Notes: generated by a model from the letters alone, not told the origin. 61,182 nt of DNA from a virus (IMGVR_UViG_3300030389_003077:1-61182), one strand, 5' to 3'; positions 8,993-34,016 are shown, numbered from the stretch's first letter. Numbers and translations are program-made.

Positions 8993-9001
8993 AATTCATT
9001 T

Positions 9002-9340
9002 TTAAAATGCTTCCATGACTATTTCATCTATAGAGTTTTGTACATCACTCTTAGTAGCCTCCATAGTCATCATTATATTTGCTTGAAATCTTTTTACTTC
9101 TTCATTATTGTTAAATATAACAATAGTAGGCACAACTACTATCTTATACTCACTTGCCCATCTAGAATCAGATGTTATATCTACTCTTTCTGTTTCACAG
9201 TCTGTTAGTTTACTTAACCAAGTAACTTCGTTAGCTTTATTAAAACTAGCATTAAACTCAACAGCTACCATGCCATCAGAAAAATCTTGACTAAATGCTG
9301 TCGTTGATATTAGAAAAAGTATAATTAAAAAGTTTTTCAT
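9002..9340 (-). CDS. Secreted thioredoxin-fold protein lacking CxxC
   Basis: Sec signal (…STTAFSQ), VEFNASFN in place of WCxxC, cis-Pro loop VVPTIVIF, EVKRF. Confidence 0.7.
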   Translation of the reverse strand: MKNFLIILFLISTTAFSQDFSDGMVAVEFNASFNKANEVTWLSKLTDCETERVDITSDSRWASEYKIVVVPTIVIFNNNEEVKRFQANIMMTMEATKSDVQNSIDEIVMEAF

Positions 9341-9344
9341 AACT

Positions 9345-9629
9345 TTATCTTAAGTTATCAATCTTCTCCTCCATCCTAATCATTTGGGTTTTTATTTCTT
9401 TTACGTCATCTTGTGTAGTCATAATAGTTTGACGTATAAGCTGATCCTTCATGTCATACTCCATACGAGTAATTTCTGGATCTGGAGGTTTAGGTAATTC
9501 TTTAGCATCTGCTATATCATTTTGTAGTGTAAACCACATTCCAACTAGTGTAAATATAAGTACAGCAATTCCTGCTAATGTTTTTAAGCTTACCTGTACT
9601 GCTGTTTCTTCACTTAATTCTTTTGCCAT
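9345..9629 (-). CDS. Single-TM membrane protein with C-terminal coiled coil
   Basis: Hydrophobic LAGIAVLIFTLVGMWFTL, PKPPDP linker, heptad C-terminus. Confidence 0.65.
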   Translation of the reverse strand: MAKELSEETAVQVSLKTLAGIAVLIFTLVGMWFTLQNDIADAKELPKPPDPEITRMEYDMKDQLIRQTIMTTQDDVKEIKTQMIRMEEKIDNLR

Positions 9630-9631
9630 TA

Positions 9632-15032: not shown

Positions 15033-15419
15033 ATGTATCATAAAGGAAAAAAAGCAATGTACGGTGCTAAAATGAAAAAAGCACTAGGTGGTGCCACAAT
15101 GAAAAAAATGAAGATGATGAAGAAGGGTGGTAAATTAAAAATGGTAAAAGGACCAGATGGTAAAATGGTTCCATTCTATGCTGCTGATGGAAAAGGGAAG
15201 ATGATGTATGGCGGATCCATGAAAAAGAAAATGACTATGGGTGGTCGTATGGGAAGTAAAGAGATGATGGAGAGTATGAAGAAGGACGATAAGATGCTAA
15301 AGCATGGTGGTAAGGTAATGATTGTTATGCCAATTAAAAAGTCTGGTAAAAAAGCTATGATGGGTGCCAAGATGAAAAGCATGAAAAAAGCCATGATGGG
15401 TGCTAAAATGAAAAAGTAA
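15033..15419 (+). CDS. Met/Lys/Gly-rich low-complexity basic protein
   Basis: Likely ATG 15033; 28 Met in 128 aa; repeated KKAMxGAKMK. Confidence 0.7.
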   Translation: MYHKGKKAMYGAKMKKALGGATMKKMKMMKKGGKLKMVKGPDGKMVPFYAADGKGKMMYGGSMKKKMTMGGRMGSKEMMESMKKDDKMLKHGGKVMIVMPIKKSGKKAMMGAKMKSMKKAMMGAKMKK

Positions 15420-18968: not shown

Positions 18969-19364
18969 ATGGCAACAGTAACAACAAAATTAACAATATC
19001 AAGTTCAGACTTAACGTCTCAAGCTCTAAGTATTGCTGTATCTAAATCTATAACAGCTACACACACAAGTGGTCTTGCTCGTGCTGCTGTAACTTCTACA
19101 GCTCAAGGCACAGCATCTGGTCAGGTAACTTTATATACAGCTTCTGACTTTGTAGCTGGTTCTTATCTATATGTTAAGAATACAGATACTACAGCTACAG
19201 ACTATATATATGTTTATGCTGATGACTCAGCAGACTCTACAATACTAAGACTTGGTGGTGGTGAGTTTTCAATTATGCCTCTAAATGCAGGAGTTAGCTT
19301 TAAAGCTTTTACAGCTACTAGTGGGACTATAGTTGAGTTTATGGTATTTGGTACAGAGGCTTAA
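18969..19364 (+). CDS. Putative virion structural/decoration protein
   Basis: 131 aa, T/S/A-rich beta protein with YLYVKNTD, own promoter. Confidence 0.55.
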   Translation: MATVTTKLTISSSDLTSQALSIAVSKSITATHTSGLARAAVTSTAQGTASGQVTLYTASDFVAGSYLYVKNTDTTATDYIYVYADDSADSTILRLGGGEFSIMPLNAGVSFKAFTATSGTIVEFMVFGTEA

Positions 19365-19741
19365 GATTTGTCAGAATACTTCTTTTGATTCTCACTCTTT
19401 AGCCTTCTACACTCATCACATCGACACCCTTTTCTATAAGCTGTTAGTGAAGGACAAGGTTTACCCTGTCTATTCCTAGCAGCACTATAGTTGCAACTTT
19501 TGTGAGAGAAAGCAATATTATTAATATCAAAAAATAAACCCTTTGGATCTTCTGAATGAAGCCAAGGGGTTTTGTGTTCTATAGTGAAATCGTCACCACA
19601 ATCTATTTCTGCACCACACTGATAACACCAGTTTAAGTCCAGTCTTTTAGCAAACTCAAATAAAAGGTTTTTCTTAAGTCTGTTTGAAGCAGTACTAGGA
19701 TCCATTCCTAGCTGTTGTTTTTTAGTGTTTTTAATAGTCAT
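19361..19741 (-). CDS. HNH endonuclease-like zinc-binding protein
   Basis: CYQC...TIEH...SHKSCN plus C-terminal CRCDEC. Confidence 0.75.
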   Translation of the reverse strand: MTIKNTKKQQLGMDPSTASNRLKKNLLFEFAKRLDLNWCYQCGAEIDCGDDFTIEHKTPWLHSEDPKGLFFDINNIAFSHKSCNYSAARNRQGKPCPSLTAYRKGCRCDECRRLKSENQKKYSDKS

Positions 19742-19963: not shown

Positions 19964-20249
19964 TTCTACTTCTTCTTATAGACTCTTTACCACGCTTAAA
20001 TATACTAGCAACCTCACTTTTACCCATAACTTTAGCACGCTGCTCACCTACAGTCAATATCTGTATCTTTCTAGCGTATGGTTTACTAATACGTTTTACT
20101 TTGGCTACAGTTGCTCTAGCGTCTGCAGGAGTTGCAAACTTAATACTAACAGTATCTTTAGGGTTTTCATCCGTATATAGTCGTCTACCAGAACCCTTAG
20201 GCTTTTTACCAGTACCAACCTTAGGATCTCTCTTTATTGCTTTAGGCAT
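19956..20249 (-). CDS. Basic phage protein
   Basis: Likely start ATG 20249 (MPKAIKRDPKVGTGKKPK); RRLYTDENPKDTV motif. Confidence 0.65.
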   Translation of the reverse strand: MPKAIKRDPKVGTGKKPKGSGRRLYTDENPKDTVSIKFATPADARATVAKVKRISKPYARKIQILTVGEQRAKVMGKSEVASIFKRGKESIRRSRNA

Positions 20250-20415
20250 CTCTATGTTGTTCTTGAATCTCGAACTTAGCTGTAAGACTAGCTCCAGCAT
20301 GAGGAACGAAAGCACCCTTGTGACGCATCAAAGTATATCTGTTTACACCTTTACGCATCCAGTGAAACCCCTGAGGAGCTCTAACACTTTTTGTTTTTCT
20401 AACTGATTTAGGCAT
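20242..20415 (-). CDS. Small basic phage protein
   Basis: Likely start ATG 20415 (MPKSVRK...APQGFHWM). Confidence 0.6.
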   Translation of the reverse strand: MPKSVRKTKSVRAPQGFHWMRKGVNRYTLMRHKGAFVPHAGASLTAKFEIQEQHRDA

Positions 20416-20839
20416 ATTGTGATTTTTTGCTAAGATAAAAAAATTCTGAGAAGTAAAAAAGGTTGGGGTTATATATGTATGCAGGGGTCCACGCGCACAT
20501 GCCGAAACGCAAATCCAAAAACGGGGTACCCAAACCAAAATCGTATACATAAAATACAAATGTCGTTTTCTATTTCCGTCCATGAGACTAACTATCTCTG
20601 ACTATCTACTATAAACCTACGGACTAATCGAAACATTCTCTTATATAGTACCTAAGCCACCTTAAAGGAGACGTATCTCAGTTACTATTGTGAGCAAGTA
20701 CTAGGGAGGGAGGGCATAATATCCCACATTATACCACTATTCCCCACACCCTACAATTATGTATCAAAAAAGTTTACACCTTGAACTCCTTAATACAAGT
20801 CCGATTAAAGAACTACTTGTGACATTTGTTGTAAAAAAA

Positions 20840-20872
20840 TTTGACACGTATTGTTTTTTATTCTTATCTTTG
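20840..20872 (+). promoter_or_regulatory. Consensus Bacteroidota promoter (-33 TTTG, -7 TATCTTTG)
   Basis: TTTG 20840-20843, 21-nt spacer, TATCTTTG 20865-20872. Confidence 0.8.
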
Positions 20873-20877
20873 TTCCC

Positions 20878-21689
20878 AACAATGATTCAATATCGTTGTC
20901 GTTCTTTACATACTGATTCAGACTCGCTATAACGCAGGAAGCCGATACAAGAGCAGTTGAGAATATCCTCTCAAGTATCAATAGGTTAGTAAGCAAGAGT
21001 CTGACTACCAAGTTCCCACGAGAGATAGCATCAAAGGGTTGTTGAGGTAGCACATCAGAATAGACCTTTAGCTTGATTGAGGGTCGTGAGTCTTAGTAAC
21101 GATACATAGCAGTAGCATTGCCTACCCAAGTGTATTAGAGCAATAATTCAATCAGCGTTTGTCAGTAGCGAATCAACTGAACGGAAACCACTGCCGACAA
21201 CTAGGTGGACTTGGATAGACCAATAGGCTATCATCAAGTTAGGTAAAGCACCATAGGGCAATCCAATAAGATTGCATACCGATTAATATGGGAAGTCTAT
21301 CAGAGGGGACACCGATGATATGTACTGAGTAATGTAGCAGTATGTTGATAGGTGTGAGAGTTAGTGACAGATACTCTGAAGTAAGATAGACACCACGCCA
21401 ATGGTTTGTTAGACAGACCAAGTAGGGCGTGTTTAATACTACTAAAAAACTAACTGATTTGATGGGACAATGCAAGGGCTACTCGCAGTAGCTTAATATG
21501 GTGGTGCTTGAGCCTACCTTGCAGAATCTCTTTACGGGAATGTACTGGTTGCCCAAATAAATATGATAGGGGCGTACATGTTTGAACGAGAGTAATCGGT
21601 TGTTAATCCTTATGTTCAGGTATGAGACGACTAACGCTGCAGATGAGCAGGAAGTTAACATAGTGGTTCGATTCCACTAATTCCCACTA
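20878..21689 (+). ncRNA. Large ornate structured ncRNA (~810 nt; GOLLD-like size/class, family unconfirmed)
   Basis: No credible ORF, raised GC, many local and long-range helices including crossing ones, AGUA/GAA loop-E motifs, tRNA-like 3' domain. Confidence 0.78.
20880..20915 (+). promoter_or_regulatory. boxB-like hairpin plus boxA-like antitermination element
   Basis: CAATGAT/ATCGTTG hairpin then GTTCTTTACATACTG, resembling rRNA-leader boxA. Confidence 0.55.
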
Positions 21690-21705
21690 ACTAAACAATT
21701 ACATT

Positions 21706-21873
21706 ATGTTGATTTTACCAATGTACACAGAGCAAGAAAGAGAAGAAATGAAGCCATATCTTGACCAATTAATCCAATGGTTAGATAAAAACGAACACTT
21801 AAAGGATACTGAAGAATACAAGCTTAAATATTCAGAAGCAGAAGGTGTTTATGAAACAATTTACGATTTGTAA
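21706..21873 (+). CDS. Early hypothetical protein (55 aa)
   Basis: MLILPMYTEQEREEMKPYLD...; first ORF after the ncRNA; below track cutoff. Confidence 0.6.
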   Translation: MLILPMYTEQEREEMKPYLDQLIQWLDKNEHLKDTEEYKLKYSEAEGVYETIYDL

Positions 21874-21909
21874 ACCCAAACAAATAGAAACTCTTAAAAT
21901 TATATAACA

Positions 21910-22107
21910 ATGGCAAAGAAAGAAGAAGACTACTTTTATAATGAGTATGGCGAAAGGGTAAGCTTCAATGATTCCCTAAAACCTTATCTTGAGAAAGCAA
22001 GAAAAAGACAACAAGAGGAAGACTCTTGGAATAGGTTTGTAAGAAAACAAGATGAGAAAGAAAAAAATAGAAAGCGTAAACTAAACAATACGAAGAATAA
22101 AGGTTAA
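21910..22107 (+). CDS. Early hypothetical protein
   Basis: 65 aa, A-rich leader; stop codon lies inside hammerhead stem I. Confidence 0.65.
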   Translation: MAKKEEDYFYNEYGERVSFNDSLKPYLEKARKRQQEEDSWNRFVRKQDEKEKNRKRKLNNTKNKG

Positions 22108-22157
22108 CTGATGAGGATTTAATATCCGAAACCTTGTCTTAGGGCAAGGTCTTAACC
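22102..22157 (+). ncRNA. Type I hammerhead ribozyme
   Basis: GGTTAA-CTGATGA-GGAT/ATCC-GAAA-CCTTGTC/GGCAAGG-TC-TTAACC: complete core, three stems, GUC cleavage triplet (cut after 22151). Confidence 0.92.
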
Positions 22158-22171
22158 AAACATTAGAAATT

Positions 22172-22432
22172 ATGAAATCAAAAAACAAATTAGAGTTACT
22201 AAAAGAATTAATAGAGGCTACTGAAGTTTATTCTAAAAAAGTAGAAAGTTTAATTAATACAAAAGAACAAGTCGGTAGTGAGTTTGATGACATCATCTTA
22301 CAACCAAATCAAGACAGACGTTATCAAACCAGCATGAGAATAGAGTTAATGTTTTTACTTAAAAGATTAAAAGTTCAAAATTGGGATTTCATTAATAGTC
22401 AGATGATGATTGAAATAGAAAATGCTAAATAA
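22172..22432 (+). CDS. Early hypothetical protein
   Basis: TAGAAATTATG leader. Confidence 0.7.
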   Translation: MKSKNKLELLKELIEATEVYSKKVESLINTKEQVGSEFDDIILQPNQDRRYQTSMRIELMFLLKRLKVQNWDFINSQMMIEIENAK

Positions 22433-22445
22433 AAAAATAGAAACT

Positions 22446-22823
22446 ATGGAAACTATGTTTAAACAAGAGAAACAACTAAGAGTACTAGCCAAGTGGCTAA
22501 AAGAATCAGATGACGGCATAGATGCTTATACTGACGGAGATATGGAAAGAGCAGTTAAGTATGGTGTACAAGAATGTATGCATAAAATAGGCGACTACCT
22601 TGAAGAAATATTAGATATGAATGATGAACAATTAATTAAAGAGATGGAAACAACTAACAAACAATCAAAATATATCGTTTGGGTAGGTGGTATACCTAAT
22701 CACTTTGACAACTTATTAGATGCCCAAGTACATAAAAAAGAATGGGAAGATGAGGGCTATGATGATGTAGTAATTGAAGCAATATTTAAAGTTAATGGTA
22801 ACGAACATCATTTATTCTGTTAA
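22446..22823 (+). CDS. Early hypothetical protein
   Basis: Start moved to TAGAAACTATG at 22446; C-terminal YIVWVGG...GYDDV motif. Confidence 0.7.
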   Translation: METMFKQEKQLRVLAKWLKESDDGIDAYTDGDMERAVKYGVQECMHKIGDYLEEILDMNDEQLIKEMETTNKQSKYIVWVGGIPNHFDNLLDAQVHKKEWEDEGYDDVVIEAIFKVNGNEHHLFC

Positions 22824-22848
22824 ACTCTAACATTTTACACTAGAAACT

Positions 22849-23055
22849 ATGGAAATAAAATTTGAAAAGTACAGACAAAACTTAACACAAGTAGGTAACA
22901 ACATTTATAGCTACGATACAAGAGTAGCTAGTATAAATGGTAAACAATTAATCCAATATAAAAATCCACTTAGAATAAATGGTCGTTGGTCAACTACAAC
23001 ACAAAAGCATATCAATTATGTGGCTAACTACTACAACCTTAACCTTAAAAAATAG
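22849..23055 (+). CDS. Early hypothetical protein
   Basis: TAGAAACTATG leader; YSYDTRVA...WSTTTQKHIN motif. Confidence 0.75.
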   Translation: MEIKFEKYRQNLTQVGNNIYSYDTRVASINGKQLIQYKNPLRINGRWSTTTQKHINYVANYYNLNLKK

Positions 23056-23060
23056 AAACT

Positions 23061-23315
23061 ATGAATTATAAAAAACAAATAGCAGAAGAAATGTACAACG
23101 AGATATGGGATATATTCAATAATTATGGTGGGTATGACTACAACGATACCATGTGGTGTCAAGCACAAGGCTCATCTGACGCTTTTGAACAAACAATAGA
23201 AGATGGAAATTGGGAGGCGTTAGTTAGAGAGTACGAGTCTGTCTTAAAATACATGAGACACATTAAGAAGATATTAATATTACAAAATAGTATACCACCA
23301 CAAGTATATTGCTAA
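23061..23315 (+). CDS. Early hypothetical protein
   Basis: TAGAAACTATG leader. Confidence 0.7.
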   Translation: MNYKKQIAEEMYNEIWDIFNNYGGYDYNDTMWCQAQGSSDAFEQTIEDGNWEALVREYESVLKYMRHIKKILILQNSIPPQVYC

Positions 23316-23340
23316 ACATTAACCTAAACAATTAGAAACT

Positions 23341-23553
23341 ATGGGAAGTTACACTACAATAGGCTACTTGCAATCTAAGATGATTCGTATGCCTTTAAAC
23401 CTTAATCAAACTTGGAATGAAGATATAAACAACTGCCAAACATCTCAAGAGATTATGGACTACATTAAATTATTTGGTACTAAAGATGAGTATTGGAGAC
23501 TACTCCATGCTATTGGTACAATGGAAATACTAAACTTAGAACTAAACAAATAG
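23341..23553 (+). CDS. Early hypothetical protein
   Basis: TAGAAACTATG leader. Confidence 0.7.
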   Translation: MGSYTTIGYLQSKMIRMPLNLNQTWNEDINNCQTSQEIMDYIKLFGTKDEYWRLLHAIGTMEILNLELNK

Positions 23554-23828
23554 AAACTATGGAAAAAATTACAAACTTTCAAAAATTAAATAGATTATCT
23601 TGCAAATTCGACATGTATTGCAATGCTACTTTAGACGATACTTGTAACAATCTTTTCAGAAAAGAATATACTGAGATAATGTTAATACGAGATACTAAGT
23701 CAAATGAATTAATCCCAAATACAAATCCATCAGATGAACAAGTGAAACGTATGCAAGATATAAACAAAGTATGTAAAGCAATAGTTCAACAAGTTAAATA
23801 CAATCTAAACAAATAGAAACTATGGAAA
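23542..23828 (+). repeat. 24-bp direct repeat CTAAACAAATAGAAACTATGGAAA (23542-23565, 23805-23828)
   Basis: Two identical copies, each spanning a stop codon, leader and start codon. Confidence 0.9.
23559..23816 (+). CDS. Early hypothetical protein
   Basis: Start moved to 23559 (leader motif); flanked by a 24-bp direct repeat. Confidence 0.7.
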   Translation: MEKITNFQKLNRLSCKFDMYCNATLDDTCNNLFRKEYTEIMLIRDTKSNELIPNTNPSDEQVKRMQDINKVCKAIVQQVKYNLNK

Positions 23829-24088
23829 TAAACGAAGAAAAATTATTTAGCGTAATGGAAGATATTACAAGAGAGCAGTACGATAACCTTTCAGATGGCG
23901 AGACATTAAAACTATCTGAGGAAGTCTCAATGTACAAATACGACCACAACTATGAAACTATGAGTGTGTATGATGATGATGAAGATGATGCACCAACACA
24001 TTGTGTAATACAATACAATGGAGAGGATATATTCGTAGTGCAAACTAACGAAGATTCACTTGAGTTTACAGATATATACGGACTATAA
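23822..24088 (+). CDS. Early acidic hypothetical protein
   Basis: Leader motif; very D/E-rich (YDDDEDD). Confidence 0.7.
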   Translation: MEINEEKLFSVMEDITREQYDNLSDGETLKLSEEVSMYKYDHNYETMSVYDDDEDDAPTHCVIQYNGEDIFVVQTNEDSLEFTDIYGL

Positions 24089-24099
24089 AAACTAAAACT

Positions 24100-24309
24100 A
24101 TGTTAGTAGAATTATCGAATGATGAAATTAGAGGGATTCTTTATGCTATTGAGAAATCAGAAGCAAAAGAATTAATTAGTAAACTAAACCTTTGCAACAA
24201 TTCTGTATCAAAAGGATTATATAGTGCAGAGTATAAGTTAAGAAAACTAAGAACAAAATTAAACAAAGAAGAATATCACGCTAAAAACAATCCAAACTAT
24301 ATTTTATAA
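24100..24309 (+). CDS. Early hypothetical protein
   Basis: TAAAACTATG leader. Confidence 0.65.
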   Translation: MLVELSNDEIRGILYAIEKSEAKELISKLNLCNNSVSKGLYSAEYKLRKLRTKLNKEEYHAKNNPNYIL

Positions 24310-24313
24310 AACT

Positions 24314-24466
24314 ATGAGACAACAACCATTAGATAATCAAACAGAAATTCTACTACCTCACTACGAGGTGGTAGAGATTCCACTATCATATATCAAATCA
24401 GAATTGCTGGTAGATTTTTGTGGGTACGAAACACTATTAGAAAACTTTTTAACTAACTTAAACTAA
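24314..24466 (+). CDS. Early hypothetical protein (50 aa)
   Basis: TAAAACTATG leader; MRQQPLDNQTEILL...; below track cutoff. Confidence 0.55.
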   Translation: MRQQPLDNQTEILLPHYEVVEIPLSYIKSELLVDFCGYETLLENFLTNLN

Positions 24467-24478
24467 ACTAATAAAATT

Positions 24479-24847
24479 ATGGACTATCAAAAAGAAGCAC
24501 ACAATAAACTTGTTCAACTTTACCAAGACAAAGCCATAGAATGCGACAGACTTGAATCAGAAATGAAGCAATTGAAGAACAAGTCAAGAAATATGAGTGT
24601 TGAATTGAAATTGTACAAAGCACTTGCAACTGATGGTGCAATCTATGTCAATTCATGGTCAATTGATTGTGATGGTGTTGAATCTTATTCTTCAGGTATT
24701 TACAATTCAATTGAAGAATATTATCAAGGAGAAAAAGAATTTGCTGAATCTGTTGAAGGCTCTTGTTCTTGGGAAATTGTTTCAAAAGAAGATGCAAGAC
24801 CACAAGAAGAATGTGGTACTTACGGACAAGGGTGGGGAATAAAATAA
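24479..24847 (+). CDS. Early hypothetical protein
   Basis: TAAAATTATG leader; coiled coil plus WSIDCDG domain. Confidence 0.7.
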   Translation: MDYQKEAHNKLVQLYQDKAIECDRLESEMKQLKNKSRNMSVELKLYKALATDGAIYVNSWSIDCDGVESYSSGIYNSIEEYYQGEKEFAESVEGSCSWEIVSKEDARPQEECGTYGQGWGIK

Positions 24848-24874
24848 AGCATAGTATGGGCGTAACACAAAAGA

Positions 24875-25051
24875 TTGTAACAAAGCGATTCTTGTATCCT
24901 TTAAGATGCCATCGACATCGAGTCTACCAAAACATGAGGTCTACATACGACTGCGATGCGATTAGGCATGGATTGATTTTTTATAAATGTTTTCTTTGAA
25001 AACGTTTGTAAACAAATGAATCTTGCTACAAGTAGAATTGCGAAGTTACAA
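24875..25051 (+). ncRNA. Putative structured intergenic RNA element (~180 nt)
   Basis: Closing stems TTGTAAC/GTTACAA and GCGATTCT/AGAATTGC enclosing two long hairpins. Confidence 0.55.
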
Positions 25052-25107
25052 GAAATATTTTATTAAATCAAGTAATTAGAAAAAATTAACAATTAAAGAA
25101 TAAAACT

Positions 25108-25449
25108 ATGGCAAATCAAACACACATTAATCTATTAAAGATGCACTCTAAGTATGTTAAAGAACAAGAAACATACAAAGAAGAAGCCGAAAAAAAGATT
25201 GAAAAATTAGAAAAAGAAATAAATAATTTAGAGGCTAGTAATTGGAGTTTAATTCAACAAAAGGGTACTTGGCAAAGACAATTTGAAGACCTTGAGTTAT
25301 ATCTTGTAAGTAAACATGGGTATGATGAGGTTGAGAAAATGACTGATGAAGCCTATGAATTAACGAGACAAAATCAGGATATAAGATATAAAATGGGTAT
25401 GCCACATTACAAGATAGTATATGTGCCACGAAAAACAACTAAAAAATAA
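25108..25449 (+). CDS. Early coiled-coil protein
   Basis: TAAAACTATG leader. Confidence 0.7.
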   Translation: MANQTHINLLKMHSKYVKEQETYKEEAEKKIEKLEKEINNLEASNWSLIQQKGTWQRQFEDLELYLVSKHGYDEVEKMTDEAYELTRQNQDIRYKMGMPHYKIVYVPRKTTKK

Positions 25450-25454
25450 AAATT

Positions 25455-25706
25455 ATGAAATTAGATCAGATTAGATTTTGGATAAAAGATAAGTCTTGTG
25501 GTGGGTACATCAAAGTAGACTGCGTTAAAAGAGATGAGGGTGGTTATGAGATTACATATTGGTCTAACAATATGATAGATAGAAGTAACGCTACCTTCAT
25601 ATACCCTAAAGCACATTACATGAGTCCGACTACAATAATTAGAATTATTAAGTGGGATGAGCCTCTTTACAACCGACTGAAAGGTGTGCCAGAAAAAGTA
25701 TTGTAA
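25455..25706 (+). CDS. Early hypothetical protein
   Basis: TAAAATTATG leader. Confidence 0.65.
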   Translation: MKLDQIRFWIKDKSCGGYIKVDCVKRDEGGYEITYWSNNMIDRSNATFIYPKAHYMSPTTIIRIIKWDEPLYNRLKGVPEKVL

Positions 25707-25780
25707 AATAAATTTGCACATGTAAAATATTTTTACTATACTTGCAAAGTGAAATGTTAATAACCATTAAACTAAAAGCT

Positions 25781-26014
25781 ATGGTAAAGTATTTAAGTCA
25801 AGAAGAAATGAAAAGATTAACTCCATCTCAAATAAAACGTTATGAGCTTAGTATTCGTTGGAACTCGCACCCTCAAATAGAGAAGTATTGGGTAGATGAA
25901 AATGGTTTTATTATAATAAAAACATATAGATATTATAGTCAAATTGGTAGAAGAGGTGGAGAAACTCATTTAAGATTTACCGAAGAATATTTAAAAGAAG
26001 TTAAAAATAAATAA
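25781..26014 (+). CDS. Hypothetical protein
   Basis: Start moved to ATG 25781 after AACCATTAAACTAAAAGCT; promoter-like TATACTTG just upstream. Confidence 0.65.
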   Translation: MVKYLSQEEMKRLTPSQIKRYELSIRWNSHPQIEKYWVDENGFIIIKTYRYYSQIGRRGGETHLRFTEEYLKEVKNK

Positions 26015-26031
26015 TCTAAAATATTTAAGCT

Positions 26032-26310
26032 ATGAAAAGTGAATTGACTGAAAGATTAATGAATCATCTTGACAATATGCAAGAGTGTAATATGAAAATA
26101 TCAGATATAAACAATCTGATCGAAAAGAATGGGTACACAAAAAAGTATGTAGATTTACTGGTGGACTTTAATGTTATCAAGACAAAGATACAATTTCAAA
26201 TAGAGGATACTCAAAGAGGCTTAGAGATAATAAATAAAAGCATAGAGCATAGGTTTGAATTAACAGAAGAATCTATAAAAGATATTACTGAAGTAATTAG
26301 GGAGTCATAA
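26032..26310 (+). CDS. Hypothetical protein
   Basis: 92 aa helical ORF in operon. Confidence 0.65.
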   Translation: MKSELTERLMNHLDNMQECNMKISDINNLIEKNGYTKKYVDLLVDFNVIKTKIQFQIEDTQRGLEIINKSIEHRFELTEESIKDITEVIRES

Positions 26311-26351
26311 TTTCCCGTCCGAACTTAAATAACAACCATTAAACTAAAACT

Positions 26352-26564
26352 ATGAATACACAAACAACTCTACAAGAGGGTAAAGACTACGAGGTAGTAG
26401 TTGATGCCTACGTTACTAACGAAGATTTAGAAGTTAATAGTATAATGTATCATTGCAGAAAGACAATGAGTGCAGTAGACATTACTGACTTTATGTATGA
26501 ATATCTAAATACAGAATCTGTAAACGACATGGAACAAACTATCATTAACAACGCAAAAGACTAA
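26352..26564 (+). CDS. Hypothetical protein
   Basis: AACCATTAAACTAAAACTATG leader. Confidence 0.7.
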   Translation: MNTQTTLQEGKDYEVVVDAYVTNEDLEVNSIMYHCRKTMSAVDITDFMYEYLNTESVNDMEQTIINNAKD

Positions 26565-26568
26565 CACT

Positions 26569-26754
26569 ATGATTACTATTGGTGGTAAAAAAGAAATGGA
26601 ATTAAGAATACAAGTAACAAAAATGAGTAAGTCAGAAATGATTGAATTAAGAGATGAATTAGAAAATAATTGGAATGAATCTCTTAGACCTTTAATGGAT
26701 GTTTTATCATTAGGCTGTTGGAGAAAATTTAAAACAGCATTAAGTAAACTATAA
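26569..26754 (+). CDS. Hypothetical protein
   Basis: 61 aa, in operon. Confidence 0.6.
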   Translation: MITIGGKKEMELRIQVTKMSKSEMIELRDELENNWNESLRPLMDVLSLGCWRKFKTALSKL

Positions 26755-26767
26755 ACAACTAAAAACA

Positions 26768-27040
26768 ATGAAAGAAAATAACAAACTTATAGCAGAATTT
26801 ATGGACTTAAGGTCTACAGGTCTGAGTATTTACAAACCAAGTGAATATAAATACCACACCTCTTGGGATTGGCTTATGCCTGTAATAGAGAAGTGTTTAG
26901 TAGGGGAAGCAGAACAAAGTGAAGAAATATCTAACACTACAATTAAAAATATTTACGAGGGTATATGTAATCAAGACATATCATTTGCGTACAAATCAGT
27001 AGTAGAATTTATTAAAGATTATAACAATGGGGAAAACTAA
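26768..27040 (+). CDS. NKLIAEFM/SWDW family paralog 1
   Basis: Motifs NKLIAEFM, YHTSWDWLMPVIEK, VVEFIKDYN. Confidence 0.8.
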   Translation: MKENNKLIAEFMDLRSTGLSIYKPSEYKYHTSWDWLMPVIEKCLVGEAEQSEEISNTTIKNIYEGICNQDISFAYKSVVEFIKDYNNGEN

Positions 27041-27191
27041 AGAACTATTTATGCAGATGGCTCAAGGCTTTATGGAGGGTATAAACATAGAGAGAGAGTT
27101 AAGGGGTAGAATGGCTGATGATGAATATCAGCACACCATATATAAAAAGAATATAAATAATAAAACTAAAAGCAATGGAAAAGAACAATAA
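27027..27191 (+). CDS. Hypothetical protein (54 aa)
   Basis: MGKTKELFMQMAQGF...; fills the gap between paralogs 1 and 2. Confidence 0.55.
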   Translation: MGKTKELFMQMAQGFMEGINIERELRGRMADDEYQHTIYKKNINNKTKSNGKEQ

Positions 27192-27525
27192 ACTTATAGC
27201 AGAATTTATGAATTATCCTAAATGTTCTGATTATTGGAACGATGGCAGATTTTTAGAAGAAGATTACAAAGACTATTATTATGTTCGTGGTCAATATGAT
27301 GCATGTTATAATAGCAGTAATTTTCATGTTAATGATATGAAGTTTGGCTTATCTTGGGATTGGCTCATACCTGTTATAGAAAAGATACAAGATAATTACA
27401 TTGAGAATCCCGAATTAGATTATAAGTATATAGATGAAATTAGATTAGCAGTACCTAACATACAAGAAGTACATTATTTAATAGTAGAATTTATTAAAGA
27501 TTATAACGATGGAAAAGACAAATAA
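27175..27525 (+). CDS. NKLIAEFM/SWDW family paralog 2
   Basis: Same three motifs, different intervening segments. Confidence 0.8.
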   Translation: MEKNNKLIAEFMNYPKCSDYWNDGRFLEEDYKDYYYVRGQYDACYNSSNFHVNDMKFGLSWDWLIPVIEKIQDNYIENPELDYKYIDEIRLAVPNIQEVHYLIVEFIKDYNDGKDK

Positions 27526-27799
27526 ACTTATAGCAGAATTTATGCAGAAAGGCTCAGAAGGATTTGGATTGTATGACTATAATGGTAAGCATTATAAATT
27601 ATATGAACTTAAATTCCACACCTCTTGGGATTGGATAATGCCAGTAGTCCAAAAGATAGGCGATGAATATCTTAACACACCATTTGATGAGACATACTCA
27701 CACCTTACAGAGCAGTATGAAAACATTTGGACATTGGAAGATACATATAACGCAGTAGTAGAATTTATTAAAGACCAAAACACTATAAAAAACAATTAG
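27509..27799 (+). CDS. NKLIAEFM/SWDW family paralog 3
   Basis: Same three motifs, different intervening segments. Confidence 0.8.
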   Translation: MEKTNKLIAEFMQKGSEGFGLYDYNGKHYKLYELKFHTSWDWIMPVVQKIGDEYLNTPFDETYSHLTEQYENIWTLEDTYNAVVEFIKDQNTIKNN

Positions 27800-27804
27800 A
27801 AATT

Positions 27805-28188
27805 ATGGGATATAGAAGTGAAGTGTACATAGCAGTACCAAAAAAAGCAGAAAAAGAAATGGACGCAGTAATGAATAATCATAACTTATTTAAAAAAGAC
27901 ATGCATGGCGATTCACCATTTGAAAAGTACGATCACAAGCAAACTTACACGCAGTTCAATGCTGATGGTAAGTGGTTTGAAAAATCAAGGGAAATTGTAA
28001 TATACGAAGGTAATTATCTTAAGTGGTACGAGGAGTATGATGATGTTCAAGGAATAACAAGTATAGTAGAGGAGTACGAGCCAAGTGGTGCGTGTATGGT
28101 ATGTGTTGGAGAAGATAGTGCAGTACATTCAGATATGGGAGAATATCATGAAGTGTTTAATGTTTACACTACAGTAGAATTAACTTAA
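27805..28188 (+). CDS. Hypothetical phage protein (MGYRSEV type)
   Basis: TAGAAATTATG leader; MGYRSEV...KWY...VGED motifs. Confidence 0.75.
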   Translation: MGYRSEVYIAVPKKAEKEMDAVMNNHNLFKKDMHGDSPFEKYDHKQTYTQFNADGKWFEKSREIVIYEGNYLKWYEEYDDVQGITSIVEEYEPSGACMVCVGEDSAVHSDMGEYHEVFNVYTTVELT

Positions 28189-28205
28189 ACTTAAATTAAA
28201 TAAAA

Positions 28206-28655
28206 ATGGAAAACAACACAATTGAATGGGGATGGGAAGAAGGTAAACCATCTAACATGAGAAGTGAGGAACATCAAAAATTCCTTATAGAACAATACAA
28301 TCGCAATAGACCGATTGATAAACAAGTAAAAGATATGGCTGAACTTAACAGAGCATTGTTAGATAACGACATACAATACCTTGGTATGCGTAGCGTTACA
28401 ATCACTGAACGTAGAGTGTATCATAAAGTATCTAAGATAACTATCGAACTACCTAAAGACTTACCATTAGAAGATACTGAGGAATGGTTAGATAATAATA
28501 AAGGTAAGTGGGAACAATCCTTAGACAATGAGTTTAATGATGCCACAATTCAATATGGTACTGGAGTCTTAGAATGTAAAGGTATGTCATATGAAAGTGC
28601 AGACAGAGAAACAAGGTATGATGTGAATGGGGAAAATTATGGAGGGCATGTGTAA
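28206..28655 (+). CDS. Hypothetical protein
   Basis: 149 aa, in operon. Confidence 0.7.
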   Translation: MENNTIEWGWEEGKPSNMRSEEHQKFLIEQYNRNRPIDKQVKDMAELNRALLDNDIQYLGMRSVTITERRVYHKVSKITIELPKDLPLEDTEEWLDNNKGKWEQSLDNEFNDATIQYGTGVLECKGMSYESADRETRYDVNGENYGGHV

Positions 28656-28918
28656 TGGCTAAGATATATATAGATAATTCAAAGTACATGGAGTTTATAG
28701 ATGATATAGCTACACAGATGACAGAGATAGCTTATATAGATACTGATGGAAGTTGTATCGCTTACAAAGAAATTCAAGATGGTTTATCAGATAATACTTG
28801 TATTGTATTTACTGATGAAGCACAAGATTACTATAACGAGAAGTACGATGAAGTAGAAACCATGTTAAACAAAACTCTAAACATACATAGTAATAACGAA
28901 TTACCAAATAAAAATTAA
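28655..28918 (+). CDS. Acidic hypothetical protein
   Basis: TAATG-coupled; FTDEAQDYYNEKYD. Confidence 0.7.
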   Translation: MAKIYIDNSKYMEFIDDIATQMTEIAYIDTDGSCIAYKEIQDGLSDNTCIVFTDEAQDYYNEKYDEVETMLNKTLNIHSNNELPNKN

Positions 28919-28920
28919 TT

Positions 28921-29124
28921 ATGAAAATAGATATGCAAAGAGTAACTAATCAAATGAGGTTTTATATATCTGAAATAAAGTCTTTACAAGATGAAAATAA
29001 GGATTTAAAAAACACCATAAAATTAGATTCAGAGAGATACAGAGGTATAATAACAGAGTTAGAAGTAGAACTGGATAAATTTAAAGATTATGAAAAGTGT
29101 ACAGAATCAAGTAAAAACAATTAA
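28921..29124 (+). CDS. Coiled-coil hypothetical protein
   Basis: 67 aa, in operon. Confidence 0.6.
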   Translation: MKIDMQRVTNQMRFYISEIKSLQDENKDLKNTIKLDSERYRGIITELEVELDKFKDYEKCTESSKNN

Positions 29125-29458
29125 TGTTGATGAGATATGGATGACTGGGGAGAAAGATCCTTGCTCTAAATATGTTATATATTCTAAGGTTAGTAAAATG
29201 TATATAAATCCAATTATTAACGATATAAAAAACATATCCAAGCAACTTAGAGGTAAGCGTATGTTTAATTCAAGTTCTTACCTAAACGCTATGAAGATAC
29301 AAACACTTATGGATACTATAGATAAATCATTTAGCGTTAAAGAACTACAAGAACTACTTGATAACAAGATGTCCCTTACTCAGTTTATATACAAAGCTTT
29401 CGAGATAAAAAGAAGAAACATTGTAAAAAATAATGACAAGAAAAGTAATATTAAGTAA
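29090..29458 (+). CDS. Hypothetical protein
   Basis: 122 aa, in operon. Confidence 0.65.
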   Translation: MKSVQNQVKTINVDEIWMTGEKDPCSKYVIYSKVSKMYINPIINDIKNISKQLRGKRMFNSSSYLNAMKIQTLMDTIDKSFSVKELQELLDNKMSLTQFIYKAFEIKRRNIVKNNDKKSNIK

Positions 29459-29469
29459 AATATTTTTAC

Positions 29470-29477
29470 TATATTTG
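29470..29477 (+). promoter_or_regulatory. -7 element TATATTTG for recombination/replication operon
   Basis: TAnnTTTG; context GTAAAATATTTTTACTATA is shared with the element near 25722-25745. Confidence 0.7.
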
Positions 29478-29509
29478 CAACAGAAAGTTAATTTAATTTA
29501 AAAACCATT

Positions 29510-30082
29510 ATGGAAAAATCAGAAACTATTGGCAAGTTAACTCTTGCCTTATCGAAGGTGCAGTCTCAATTAAGACCTGCAAAAGAAAACTCAAAGAATC
29601 CTTTCTTTAAATCAAGCTATGCTGATCTTGGATCGGTTTGGGATTCAGTTCGTAAACTATTATCAGATAATGAACTAGCTATTGTACAAATGCCTACAGA
29701 TGTAGGTGGTGTAACAACAATCCTGTCACATTCAAGTGGAGAGTTTATATCTTCTACGATGTATATTCCTTCAAAGGAAGATGCACATGGTGTTGGATCT
29801 GCTATATCTTACGCTAGAAGATACGCCCTAGCATCATTCGTAGGTGTAGTTACTGGAGATGATGACGATGGCAACATGGCTGTTAAAGGTAATCGTTTAT
29901 CTTCAAGTAAAAAATCTGCACCTAAACCTAAGCTAACTGACTCTCAATACAAGAGTATGATGAAGGCTATTGAGGATGGTAAGGGTAATGTTGTAGAGCA
30001 AAAGATGGCTGGGTACACCATGACTAAAACTCAACAAGATAACCTTAATAAAATTCTTAAGCTATCTAAAACTTTAGCGTAA
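29510..30082 (+). CDS. erf: ERF-family single-strand annealing protein
   Basis: KNPFFKSSYADL, GSAISYARRYAL, DDDGN signature. Confidence 0.92.
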   Translation: MEKSETIGKLTLALSKVQSQLRPAKENSKNPFFKSSYADLGSVWDSVRKLLSDNELAIVQMPTDVGGVTTILSHSSGEFISSTMYIPSKEDAHGVGSAISYARRYALASFVGVVTGDDDDGNMAVKGNRLSSSKKSAPKPKLTDSQYKSMMKAIEDGKGNVVEQKMAGYTMTKTQQDNLNKILKLSKTLA

Positions 30083-30849
30083 TGAGTTTAGATAATTTTA
30101 TAAAGAAGTTAATTGATGACTCTTTTTATTACTCTGACTACGAGTTTGTAACGAACTCGCAGTTAGGGTTGATAAAGAAAGATGTCAGAACTTATAAGAT
30201 GATGAGGGACAATCCCGAACTCAACAAAGAAACTTTACCTATGATCTTTGGTAGAGCATATCATGTAGCTATGTTAGAGCCTAACGAGTTTCATAATAAA
30301 GTTTTAGTATTCGACTCAGCTACAAGAACTACTAAAGGGTATAAAGAATTTGCGTTGGCTAACCCTAACGCATCTACAATAATACTCCAGAAAGAACACG
30401 ATAAGATTATGTACATGTGTGATGTCTTGTTTGGACATTCTGAGGTTAGGGATCTCCTTCAGGTAGAGGGTAAGAGGGAGATCGCTAACGCTTGGAAAGA
30501 TCAGGATACTGATGTCTATTGTAAAGGTAAAGCAGATTATATAAATGGCAAAACCCTTATAGATTTAAAGACAACATCTGATGGTAGCTTCTATGGTTTC
30601 TCTAACTCTTGCAAGAAGTATGGATACGATAGACAATCAGCATTCTATATGGATGGCTTTGGTTGTGATGAGTTTGTGTTTATAACTCAGGAAAAAGAAA
30701 GACCTTACAACGTTTCTATATTCTATGCTAGTGATGAGTTTATAGAGAGGGGTAGACAAGAGTACAAATACTTGTTAGATGTCTATAAGAAGTTCTTTAT
30801 AACCAACGAAGAATCTATAAGTGAACACTTAATTATGGAGACACTATGA
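30082..30849 (+). CDS. RecE/exonuclease VIII-like PD-(D/E)XK nuclease
   Basis: FGRAYHVAMLEP, CKGKAD...IDLKTT, YDRQSAFY; coupled to erf. Confidence 0.88.
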   Translation: MSLDNFIKKLIDDSFYYSDYEFVTNSQLGLIKKDVRTYKMMRDNPELNKETLPMIFGRAYHVAMLEPNEFHNKVLVFDSATRTTKGYKEFALANPNASTIILQKEHDKIMYMCDVLFGHSEVRDLLQVEGKREIANAWKDQDTDVYCKGKADYINGKTLIDLKTTSDGSFYGFSNSCKKYGYDRQSAFYMDGFGCDEFVFITQEKERPYNVSIFYASDEFIERGRQEYKYLLDVYKKFFITNEESISEHLIMETL

Positions 30850-31052
30850 CATTAAAAGAAAAATTAGCAAAAAAAGAGATCTCAGTATTGTGGCTCTCTG
30901 AAAGAATAGGGTTAAGCAGACCTACCCTAACTAAGTACATTGAAAAACCTGACGAGTTTAAAGTTAAGCACGCCAAGAGAATAGCAAAGTATTTAGGAGT
31001 AACAGAAAGGTACGCATTAGTTAATTATTTTAAATCTGAAAGTTATGAGTAA
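30846..31052 (+). CDS. Cro/XRE-like HTH protein
   Basis: WLSERIGLSRPTLTKY helix-turn-helix. Confidence 0.75.
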   Translation: MTLKEKLAKKEISVLWLSERIGLSRPTLTKYIEKPDEFKVKHAKRIAKYLGVTERYALVNYFKSESYE

Positions 31053-31311
31053 CACAGAAAAAATTTATGTAGGTAACGGAGTAGAAAAATTTGATGGAGA
31101 CTTAGTAGAGTTTTCTCTTAACCTAACTAAGTTAAAGTCTGATGCTGGTAGCCACATATTTGATGGCACCAACGGAGACAAGTACATTAGATTAAAGGTT
31201 GTAAGGAAGCGTAATGGTGCTGATGATTATGGAAAGACTCATTACGTTGAGGTAAACACCTTTAAGCCTGAGCCTAAAAAAGAGGCAGTGGCTAACGACT
31301 TACCATTTTAG
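31045..31311 (+). CDS. Putative ssDNA-binding protein
   Basis: Small beta protein ending NDLPF (SSB-type tail) beside erf/recE. Confidence 0.65.
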   Translation: MSNTEKIYVGNGVEKFDGDLVEFSLNLTKLKSDAGSHIFDGTNGDKYIRLKVVRKRNGADDYGKTHYVEVNTFKPEPKKEAVANDLPF

Positions 31312-31315
31312 TAAT

Positions 31316-31339
31316 GGAGGGGGCTATCCCCCTCCTTTT
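31316..31339 (+). terminator. Intrinsic terminator/attenuator before replication genes
   Basis: GGAGGGGG-CTAT-CCCCCTCC-TTTT. Confidence 0.75.
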
Positions 31340-31361
31340 CTAAACCATTAAACTAAAAACT

Positions 31362-31856
31362 ATGAAGTATAGAATTTCAGATACAGATATTATAGATCTT
31401 CAAAAGGTAGACTTTATCGAAGTTGATGGTAGATCTATAAATTTTCACATAAATTCAAACGTACATCAATCTGTTTACAATAACGATTTAGAGTCTACAT
31501 ACGTATTCAACAACATAGTAAGTCACTTTGATGTAGTGGATCTAAGATTTCAATCTAAAGAGAAGAAGGTGACCATTAATAGTAGAAAAGAGAAAGGCTT
31601 TGAGATGTTTTGGAATCTTTACGACAAGAGAGTAGATAAGATTAAGGCTAAGAAGTCTTGGATGAATCTAACTTTAAATGAGATGGGAGATGCCATAAAA
31701 GCTGTTAAGACTTATGTTGAATCTACTCCAGACAAGCAGTACAGAAGAATGCCAGCAACTTGGATTAATAATAAAAGCTGGAAGAACGATATTAAATTAA
31801 ATAACAAGAAAACTAACCGATACGTTAAACCTCAATACATCCAAGATGAAAGATAA
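31362..31856 (+). CDS. Putative replication initiator/helicase-loader protein
   Basis: FEMFWNLYDKR..KAKKSW...PATWINNKSW motif of phage replisome-organiser C-termini; directly precedes dnaB. Confidence 0.65.
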   Translation: MKYRISDTDIIDLQKVDFIEVDGRSINFHINSNVHQSVYNNDLESTYVFNNIVSHFDVVDLRFQSKEKKVTINSRKEKGFEMFWNLYDKRVDKIKAKKSWMNLTLNEMGDAIKAVKTYVESTPDKQYRRMPATWINNKSWKNDIKLNNKKTNRYVKPQYIQDER

Positions 31857-33168
31857 TATTGACATGGAAAATAGACTTATCGGTAAGATAATGTCCAATC
31901 CTAAAGATTACTATGATTGTCATAGTCTAATATCAGAAAATATATTTAAGGATCCTTTAAATAAAAGGATATACAAGGTTATTTCTAGTAAGTTGGATTC
32001 AGGATTGAAGGCTGATATGATGGACATATCTTCAAGTATTAAAGATCCTTTGGTTGATCTTAGGGTTGCTGAATGTATTAGCTCCGATCATTATGGATAC
32101 ATCACAAAGAAAATTGTTCTTTACTTGTCTCAAGAAGAAAAGAAGGGTAAGTTAAAAAGTCTTGTCGAGAGTACGTCTAAAAAGATAGATAGTGGGGACG
32201 ATCTATTTAACATATTAGAGTTTGTAGAAGAACAATTAAAGAGTATATCTGAAGTTAGAGGTAGTGATATACCTGACATAAAAAAGCAGTTAAAAAAGCT
32301 ACATGATGATATTAACAGAAGAATTAATTCTGAAGATATGATTGGTATAGCTACTGGGTTTCAATCTGTAGATAAGTTTACTGGTGGTTGGCAAGAGACC
32401 GATCTAATAGTTATAGGTGGTGCATCATCTATGGGTAAGACATCTCTTGGGTTAGCATTCTCTTATAATTGTGCAAAGATGGACATACCTACTGCTATAT
32501 TCTCTTACGAGATGGGAGATACTCAGCTTTTACAAAGGTTAGTTTCTTTAGAGAGTGAGGTAAATAATAGGTATATAATGAAGGGGACCATAGAGAATAA
32601 CGAGCTTATGAGGATTCATAAAGCTATTGGTAAGCTAGAAAATACAACTCTTTTTATAGACGAATGTAAGAACTCTTCACTCAAATACCTTTTAAATAAA
32701 ATACGTCAGTATGTAATAACTAAGGATGTCAAGTTCTTCTTGGTAGACTACCTTCAGTTAGTTAAAGCAACTGGGTCCTCAAGAGAACAAGAGGTAGCTG
32801 TTGTGGCTCGTGAACTTAAGAACATAGCTAAAGAACTTAACGTTACTGTTGTAGCTTTGTCACAACTTAGTAGAGGTGTTGAACGTAGAGATGGTTGTAG
32901 ACCTACCTTATCTGATCTTCGTGAGAGTGGAGAGATAGAGCAGGCTTCTGATATTGTTATGCTTGTATATAGACCAGAATACTATGGCATTATGAATGAT
33001 GATAGTGGAAGTTCTACCCAAGGTCTTGTTGACCTTATATTTGCTAAAGGTAGAAACATAGGTACTGGAACTTTGCCTTTACACTTTAAAAAGGAGTATA
33101 CTAAGTTTATTGATCCCCAGGATTATACTGAGAAGTTTACAACTGCAGAACCTTCAGAATCATTTTAG
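31846..33168 (+). CDS. dnaB: Replicative DNA helicase DnaB
   Basis: GGASSMGKTS, FSYEM, VDYLQL, ALSQLSR, LSDLRESGEIEQASD. Confidence 0.96.
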   Translation: MKDNIDMENRLIGKIMSNPKDYYDCHSLISENIFKDPLNKRIYKVISSKLDSGLKADMMDISSSIKDPLVDLRVAECISSDHYGYITKKIVLYLSQEEKKGKLKSLVESTSKKIDSGDDLFNILEFVEEQLKSISEVRGSDIPDIKKQLKKLHDDINRRINSEDMIGIATGFQSVDKFTGGWQETDLIVIGGASSMGKTSLGLAFSYNCAKMDIPTAIFSYEMGDTQLLQRLVSLESEVNNRYIMKGTIENNELMRIHKAIGKLENTTLFIDECKNSSLKYLLNKIRQYVITKDVKFFLVDYLQLVKATGSSREQEVAVVARELKNIAKELNVTVVALSQLSRGVERRDGCRPTLSDLRESGEIEQASDIVMLVYRPEYYGIMNDDSGSSTQGLVDLIFAKGRNIGTGTLPLHFKKEYTKFIDPQDYTEKFTTAEPSESF

Positions 33169-33259
33169 TTATGGATTTAGATATAGAATCGTTAATTAAT
33201 TTAATTATAGGGTTATTATTTGTAATCACTATGATTAAAAGAATAATAGATAGGTTTGT

Positions 33260-33917: not shown

Positions 33918-34016
33918 CTTTAAAATAAATTAATATGAAAAATGCTTTAATAATTATTTGTTTGATGTTATCATACATAACTTGGGAAATTATTAAACAC
34001 AATAAAGAAGAAAAAA

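Follow-up and report, generated by a model that had tools for sequence, protein, structure and literature searches.

What kind of RNA has the acceptor stem and T arm of a transfer RNA (tRNA) and no arm with which to decode? The question is raised by positions 21536 to 21689 of the IMG/VR virus record IMGVR_UViG_3300030389_003077, a phage genome of 61,182 bases with a completeness estimate of 97%, which we call, at its full length, the window. A previous reading of the sequence alone had noticed an expanded tRNA-like domain at this place, had assigned it to the 3' end of a large non-coding RNA (ncRNA) and had proposed that it was either a processing signal for ribonuclease P (RNase P) and RNase Z or a decoy against anticodon nucleases. 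We found that the tRNA-like element belongs to what is apparently an undescribed but conserved phage RNA family of 118-195 nt, and we weigh below what its members might do.

The element in the window

The pairings from which the domain had been recognised are present in the sequence. GGGAAT at 21536-21541 is complementary to ATTCCC at 21680-21685, which is followed by A and CTA, and the T arm AGTGG-TTCGATT-CCACT spans 21662-21678; the six-pair version drawn originally (21661-21679) also pairs. The description of a real tRNA-like element lacking an anticodon arm, the G3.U70 pair and the features of transfer-messenger RNA (tmRNA) was likewise borne out: the third acceptor pair of the window is G-C and not G.U, and helices P3 to P6 occupy the position of the anticodon arm. 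As had been expected, no canonical gene was called. ARAGORN reported 0 tRNA and 0 tmRNA genes in the 61182 bases, with nothing credible in its intron and relaxed-score modes, and made no call over any element in the sister loci scanned. Rfam 15 gave 0 matches to the window at the gathering score; at E ≤ 10 the sole match was that of the 17-nt T loop to a tmRNA family (11.6 bits versus a gathering score of 84), and in 11 sister loci the genuine tRNA-Arg alone scored.

Taken by itself, the window sequence is not convincing as a structured RNA. The minimum free energy (MFE) of the element, -40.6 kcal/mol, has a z score of -1.31, with 19 of 200 shuffles folding equally well, and an 11-nt T-loop motif with at most one mismatch was present in 28 of 100 shuffles. 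It is because of homology and covariation that the element is more than chance.

A conserved family and its covariation

Members were retrieved by searches with 23-25-mers proximal to the T arm, which matched two other IMG/VR contigs, of 65.8 and 72 kb and each with a completeness rating of 100%, and 26 contigs from marine metagenomes. The resulting 29 rows, window included, were reduced to 22 distinct copies of 118-195 nt by leaving out two that were cut at the 5' side and five duplicates; the TARA contig L019 is identical to the window. A search with a 5' pattern returned 17 stretches, 14 of them new, which comprised 13 chance matches and one true member, L072, with the same T arm as the rest of the family; it brings the other IMG/VR contigs with the element to three. 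Looser T-arm and P6 patterns produced no additional contigs, and an exact pattern that included the acceptor strand of the window had 0 matches in IMG/VR, this strand being different in all relatives. A variant contig from a DNA run also kept the T arm and had a different acceptor strand. Positions 20600-21710 of the window had no match among 50,697 GenBank phage records. Elsewhere in the window, a covariance-model match at 15053-15190 (E = 0.64) was weak and was judged to be noise. No description of the family was found in the literature; the accessible part of PMC10690425, a catalogue of about 10,000 viral structured-RNA candidates, mentions 'tRNA or tRNA-like' ones from IMG/VR, and the element may already be listed among them.

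RNAalifold recovered the acceptor stem (P1), the base of arm 1 (P2a), the CUGC/GCAG hairpin (P6) and the T arm from a plain MAFFT alignment. The remaining helices were added by eye, which gave a covariance model with 39 pairs in 151 positions, and realignment to this model, with weak matches left out, yielded 23 true members; those that are complete scored 119-172 bits. Standard pairs filled 96.4% of 844 cells across the 23 members, in comparison to 32-44% when the 3' partners were slid by one to three columns. Moreover, 12 of the 39 pairs were changed on both sides, as against 4.1±1.4 in 500 shuffles (0/500 reached 12) and 2-6 in the slid controls.

The acceptor pairing is conserved: all P1 cells are paired (100%), and three of the six pairs have changed on both sides. 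Position 2 is AU in 12 members, GC in 6 and GU in 3; position 6 is UG in 17, CG in 4 and UA in 1; at position 3, 20 of 21 members have A-U and one has G-C, and none has G.U. The T arm is invariant in the 23 members. The three internal arms of the sequence-only reading fared unequally. The composite arm GTAC..GCCC/GGGC..GTAC was upheld by compensatory changes, which affect both sides of three of the four pairs in each of its halves (P2a and P2b), and CTGC/GCAG, which corresponds to P6, is invariant and therefore neutral. The arm TGAAC/GTTCA (21583-21587 with 21614-21618), in contrast, is present in the window as an alternative fold but is not kept in the family, the consensus of which has P3, P4 and P5 in its place. 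P3 is paired in 99.4% of cells, with changes from AU to GU only, and three of the six pairs of P5 have changed on both sides. All pairs of the family consensus are standard in the window. These comparisons of sequences show the element to be a selected RNA fold.

The four helices abut without linker bases, in the order P1, P2, P3 and T arm and then back to P1. The acceptor-like stem, of 6 bp in all members, stacks on a canonical 5-bp T arm. In the window this junction includes an extra base, A21679, between the T stem and the acceptor strand, which was seen only here and in the identical L019. Within P2, the bulge has the invariant sequence U-G-G (T11, G12 and G13; 22/22 sequences), and the conserved core of the family is the acceptor/T-arm stack together with this bulge. 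We infer that the UGG bulge would play the role of the D-loop GG, contacting the T loop as G18 and G19 do in tRNA. The interior is also nearly invariant, with ACUAACG, the CUGC-AGAAGA-GCAG hairpin and GAAG kept in 22 of 23 members, and the tips of the arms outside the acceptor/T-arm stack vary freely. Length changes by whole-hairpin modules: copies of the L014 type are without P5, those of the L024 type have a 70-nt insert at that place, and in L022 the central domain is replaced by a 7-bp hairpin with a 6-nt loop, P6 is absent and arm 1 is hugely enlarged. No anticodon arm (5-bp stem, 7-nt loop) is conserved among the aligned members, where P3 with P4, P5 and P6 stands instead. Given this modular variation, the conserved part is the upper half of a tRNA, with no anticodon-like loop. 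Upper half and elbow are the part of a tRNA that RNase P, RNase Z and the CCA-adding enzyme read.

Ends of the element and genomic setting

The ends of the element are of tRNA type. All 21 complete copies have A-C after the acceptor strand, 18 of them in the form ACTA and 3 in the form ACAA; in the window the trailer after A21686 is CTA and not CCA. Five sister contigs have a genuine tRNA-Arg(UCU) on the same strand, 1.6-2.7 kb downstream. Among the tRNA-Arg genes whose flanks were read (L023, L028, L032, L035 and L040), the trailer A-CTA follows 5/5, as it does the tRNA-like elements, and the first pair is G1.U72 in three (L023, L035 and L040). In the complete genome G006, one strand bears the element, a tRNA-Arg gene and a further tRNA-like gene, all within 5 kb.

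All three forward frames contain stops in 21 of 22 copies. Same-strand upstream open reading frames (ORFs) end 11-150 nt before the element, and the next ORF on that strand to start with ATG follows after 12-30 nt in 16 of 18 copies and after 64 and 93 nt in the other two. Such a location at the boundaries of co-directional units fits a processing signal. In about 20 other contigs the element is found between same-strand protein genes, with no large ncRNA, and phages with the large ncRNA can be without the element. The assignment of the element to the ncRNA as one of its domains was not upheld by this distribution.

The element is present in the genomes G005 and G006, with major capsid proteins (MCPs) 31% identical to that of the window. 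The closest relatives of the window are G001 and G002, which share 72% and 80% identity with it in the MCP, and no covariance-model match occurs anywhere in either. None of these four genomes has a homologue of the three small ORFs that follow the element (21706-22432), and no window protein is common only to the element-bearing G005 and G006. The tail-region ORFs (8537-10666) are 70-84% identical to those of G005 although the capsids share only about 30%. The genomes are therefore strongly mosaic, and recombination brought the element in or removed it. As judged from these genomes, the element is an independent module that moves horizontally among marine phages.

The sister phages hold additional structures near the element. 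A candidate H-type pseudoknot at L014:1962-2007 (CCAGU/ACUGG with ACUUGUU/AACAAGU) lies between the upstream ORF stop and the element and recurs in L017, L018, L020, L026, L031, L033, L034, L036, L039 and L040; its sequence is too uniform for covariation to be assessed, and it is not recovered by plain folding. A second, mini tRNA-like element of about 60 nt is found directly upstream of the main one at L031:1809-1870 (minus strand) and also in L027, L032 and L033. It consists of the 6-bp stem UGUAGU/ACUACA and the T arm GUGAG-UUCGAUU-CUCAU, which resembles that of the phage tRNA-Arg, followed by A-CUA. Further tRNA-like genes not called by ARAGORN were seen at L016:3278-3354, L032:5198-5322 and G006:30491-30567 (the last a weak model match only); one of 77 nt has the stem AGCUAG/CUAGCU and the trailer A-CUA, and one of 125 nt has the 7-bp stem GCCCAAG/CUUGGGC and the trailer A-CAA. 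The same four-codon mini-ORF, ATG AAG CCT CTT TGA, precedes both L016:3278-3354 and L032:5198-5322.

The upstream ncRNA and its missing terminator

In the window the element closes a stretch of about 1.1 kb without a conserved ORF (20584-21705), flanked by a leftward gene at 20242-20583 and by a rightward block of small ORFs from 21706. The promoter of the ncRNA (Table 1) is the sole match of its pattern for the plus-strand block 20840-35735; we take it to be of the Bacteroidota -33/-7 type, and it was also scored as TTGACA-18-TATCTT. Over window positions 20840-21399, the ncRNA is 92% identical to L006 and 80% to L011. Relatives found through the neighbouring 113-aa protein have the non-coding region in common, with similarity ending at about 21400, and none of them has the element. 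In L022 only the promoter, the first 83 nt of the ncRNA and its 3' linker are retained.

A G/C hairpin followed by a T run terminates the ncRNA of L006 and L011 exactly where the window diverges, and no intrinsic terminator was found on the plus strand of window positions 20500-22300. Here the sequence continues with a linker, the long helix of which ends 1 nt before the element (fold z = -2.30 in the window). L022 repeats the order ncRNA, linker and element; its linker is the same, with two compensatory changes in the inner hairpin relative to the window. In the window and L022 the linker and then the element replace the ncRNA terminator of L006 and L011.

Assembled contigs from RNA libraries of two studies (X16 and X17) cover 20863-21514, where the summed word depth reaches about 500; the flanks, and with them 21518-21875, have none. 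These contigs show no RNA ends and come mostly from relatives, and the absent cover over the element is therefore neutral on its processing and expression. One X17 contig continues for 148 letters past 21480 in an L022-like manner and may enter an L022-type element, from which we draw no claim.

Table 1. Coordinates of the tRNA-like element, its helices and neighbouring features (window positions unless a contig is named).
Feature	Position	Strand	Remarks
ncRNA promoter, TTTG, 21 nt, TAtcTTTG	20840-20872	+	pattern scan; kept in L006, L011 and L022
Large ncRNA	20880-21459	+	start approximate, inferred from promoter; core to about 21400 conserved; no Rfam match
Linker domain	21460-21535	+	long helix GAUUUGAUGGGA with UCUCUUUA, enclosing GCAAGG/CCUUGC and inner hairpins
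P1 5' strand, acceptor-like stem, GGGAAU	21536-21541	+	pairs with 21680-21685; putative RNase P site 21535/21536
P2, arm 1, D-arm position	21542-21577	+	P2a, UGGUU bulge, P2b and variable loop
P2a	21542-21545 / 21574-21577	+	GUAC with GUAC
P2 bulge	21546-21550	+	UGGUU, 5 nt
P2b	21551-21554 / 21570-21573	+	GCCC with GGGC
Central domain, anticodon-arm position	21578-21661	+	P3 enclosing P4, P5 and P6
P3	21578-21582 / 21657-21661	+	AUGUU with AACAU
P4	21587-21589 / 21596-21598	+	
P5	21599-21604 / 21626-21631	+	
P6	21637-21640 / 21647-21650	+	CUGC with GCAG; invariant
T arm, AGUGG-UUCGAUU-CCACU	21662-21678	+	invariant, 23/23 members
Extra A21679, P1 3' strand AUUCCC (21680-21685), discriminator A21686, trailer CUA (21687-21689)	21679-21689	+	putative 3' cut after 21686
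First downstream ORF, 55 aa	21706-21873	+	first of the small early ORFs in the rightward block; begins 16 nt past the element
tRNA-Arg(UCU)	L023:2093-2167, L028:2110-2184, L032:2837-2911, L035:8289-8363 (-), L040:3613-3687, L050:7945-8019		no encoded CCA

A proposed processing signal and the alternatives

That the element is a processing signal, as the sequence-only reading had suggested, is plausible from its structure and location. The element would be transcribed within long rightward early transcripts, host RNase P would cut at 21535/21536, and RNase Z or an equivalent activity would cut after A21686. In this phage the 5' cut would leave the ncRNA, about 650 nt long, with a 3' end that is base-paired, where the sister phages use a terminator; the 3' cut would free the downstream messenger RNA (mRNA) with a short A/U-rich leader; and a tRNA-like RNA of about 151 nt (21536-21686) would be released. 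That the element is such a mimic of the tRNA top half, excised by the two enzymes and punctuating early transcripts, is the reading we favour, at about even odds.

Several observations weigh against this reading. RNase P prefers U at position -1, and this base is C in 19 of 22 copies. In the window, the predicted fold pairs the 5' leader up to -2, a possible obstacle to RNase P. The MFE structure of the element (-40.8 kcal/mol in this comparison) rearranges the interior relative to the consensus (-31.7, or -35.2 when extended). The pair counts come from an alignment fitted to the covariance model and from related sequences, and the invariance of the T arm is partly due to most members having been found by a T-arm pattern, L072 being the sole 5'-pattern find. 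A plain processing signal would not need 70 nt of sequence-conserved interior. Finally, because the acceptor stem has six pairs, the stack is of 11 bp (12 layers in the window, counting the extra A) and not the canonical 7+5, and a 7-bp stem is named as a major RNase P determinant in the accessible part of PMC4201824.

The near invariance of the interior (ACUAACG, CUGC-AGAAGA-GCAG and GAAG) suggests a second, trans-acting role. The released RNA could be a stand-alone tRNA mimic, perhaps CCA-tailed, and could titrate, as decoy or sponge, some host factor reading the acceptor end or the elbow, for example a defence toxin modifying tRNA 3' ends or a tRNA-binding enzyme; processing would then be biogenesis only, which is compatible with excision by RNase P and RNase Z. 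We regard this as possible and hold it tentatively. An interior nearly invariant in 22 of 23 members is more than a cleavage signal requires, the element has spread horizontally among distant phages and sits in hypervariable early regions, and the sister phages have further uncalled tRNA-like genes. However, the window has no protein shared only with the element-bearing G005 and G006 that could be a partner, L022 is without the conserved P6 hairpin, and the lack of an anticodon-like loop makes anticodon nucleases unlikely targets. The anticodon-nuclease decoy proposed at the outset finds no basis in the anatomy, the place of the anticodon arm being taken by a branched variable domain or by the L022 hairpin with its 6-nt loop. 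The two roles could also be combined, RNase P making the 3' end of the ~650-nt ncRNA and the CCA-tailed top-half tRNA serving as an acceptor-end decoy, which would account for both the invariant interior and the spread among phages with MCPs only about 30% identical; we consider this combination unlikely.

The short distance to the next ATG (12-30 nt in 16/18 copies) would also suit a structure of the 5' untranslated region that is never excised and governs translation or stability of the next ORF in cis. This is quite unlikely in our view: the downstream ORFs are unrelated between phages where the element is nearly identical, and the tRNA-type ends, with the discriminator A and the trailer of a real tRNA, would be left unexplained.

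The perfect T arm and acceptor 3' strand resemble the attP cores that are generally known from tRNA genes, and the element might be thought the remnant of a tRNA gene in decay, or the 3' part of one retained as an attachment site for integration into a host tRNA gene. This explanation is largely refuted and very improbable, as compensatory changes keep the 5' strand paired, placing the whole stem under selection, and as length changes by whole-hairpin modules and not by decay. In addition, neither the 23-mer nor the 21-mer of the T arm and acceptor occurred exactly in any of 185,579 prokaryote genomes, one per species, and neither an integrase nor a tRNA-related enzyme was found among the 36 window ORFs scanned against Pfam, a scan that was not exhaustive.

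Comparison with known tRNA-like RNAs

That the element is a reduced tmRNA or a bacterial Y RNA of the YrlA type is extremely improbable. It shares with the tmRNA tRNA-like domain an acceptor stem and a T arm, the absence of a tRNA-type D stem and an enlarged body domain, and the succession of a 5' acceptor strand and a UGG-containing segment recalls that domain. It differs in having no G3.U70 (position 3 is never G.U), no tag or tmRNA call by ARAGORN and a length of 118-195 nt, and the Rfam tmRNA families match its T loop only. According to the accessible part of PMC4201824, YrlA RNAs combine an acceptor-like stem with a T arm and a D-like arm, are encoded by phages too, and in M. smegmatis one is cut by RNase P and CCA-tailed; there, the Ro60/TROVE gene is adjacent, a loop closes the acceptor stem, and both ends of the molecule lie elsewhere, in a Ro-binding stem. 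The phage element, in contrast, ends open at the acceptor stem and has no Rfam match, and TROVE/Ro60 (PF05731) gave 0 matches in the 61-kb phage, with the control positive in 2 of 14 genomes. The element is not a tRNA, a tmRNA or a YrlA RNA: for each of these, defining features were looked for and were absent.

Mitochondria provide the example of 'tRNA punctuation', in which the enzymes of tRNA ends are held to create mRNA 5' and 3' ends at non-decoding tRNA-like structures. The t-elements of plant mitochondrial transcripts, as far as the accessible part of PMC1920247 presents them, share with the phage element a tRNA-like structure without decoding function between transcription units. They are organellar and unrelated in sequence, whereas the phage element spreads horizontally and has a 6-bp acceptor stem and a large interior that is conserved and branched, and its processing is only proposed. 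In the MALAT1 and MEN-beta transcripts, RNase P cleavage at the mascRNA makes a structure-protected 3' end of the ncRNA and releases a small tRNA-like RNA. The window and L022 likewise have a long, abundant ncRNA without a normal terminator and a tRNA-like element directly after it. However, MALAT1 is eukaryotic and nuclear, the phage arrangement occurs in these two only while most members follow protein genes, and no triple helix is evident.

Among phages, T4 has stable RNAs, and its tRNA genes are without an encoded CCA. The accessible part of PMC11143913 lists the M3 RNA and the C4 antisense RNA of P1 and P7 as RNase P substrates, and it cites the 'tRNA-like molecules' of T-even phages. These are non-tRNA phage RNAs matured by host RNase P, from unrelated hosts and phages, and were compared by description only. 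Mimicry of the tRNA upper half by a virus is also seen in the 3' tRNA-like structures of plant viruses of the turnip yellow mosaic virus (TYMV) type, as mentioned in the same part of PMC11143913. The TYMV structures are aminoacylated, fold their acceptor stem with a pseudoknot and occupy the 3' end of a genome made of RNA, whereas the phage element is internal to the transcripts of a DNA phage and has a plain acceptor helix; the likeness in pseudoknots concerns the candidate upstream of the element in sister phages (L014:1962-2007).

Implications of the family

The principle of tRNA punctuation is known from organelles and MALAT1. If the elements are cut by RNase P and RNase Z, DNA phages would also use it, ending a long ncRNA without a terminator and trimming mRNA leaders. 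If the released RNA acts in trans, it would represent a new class of phage tRNA mimics aimed at the acceptor and elbow half and not at the anticodon. These elements escape tRNA finders and Rfam, so that unannotated tRNA mimics may be numerous in phage genomes, and the sister phages have at least three further uncalled tRNA-like genes. The clear covariation and about two dozen natural variants, minimal and expanded, make the family ready material for studies of structure and cleavage.

Other features of the source phage

The proteins of the window include an SU10-type capsid protein, DnaB, ERF and PDDEXK, and a protein of 763 aa with a type IX secretion system (T9SS) sorting domain. This domain and the promoter type suggest Bacteroidota hosts. 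On the minus strand, 35979-56063 holds three giant ORFs of 2441, 1770 and 1523 aa that are nearly without Pfam signal; the 2441-aa ORF has weak matches below the cut-off only, to methyltransferase and DUF3293. An HNH endonuclease gene (PHROG 23251, E = 2.5e-36) lies at 19361-19741 on the minus strand, 1.1 kb upstream of the ncRNA promoter, and is also present in G001 and G002.

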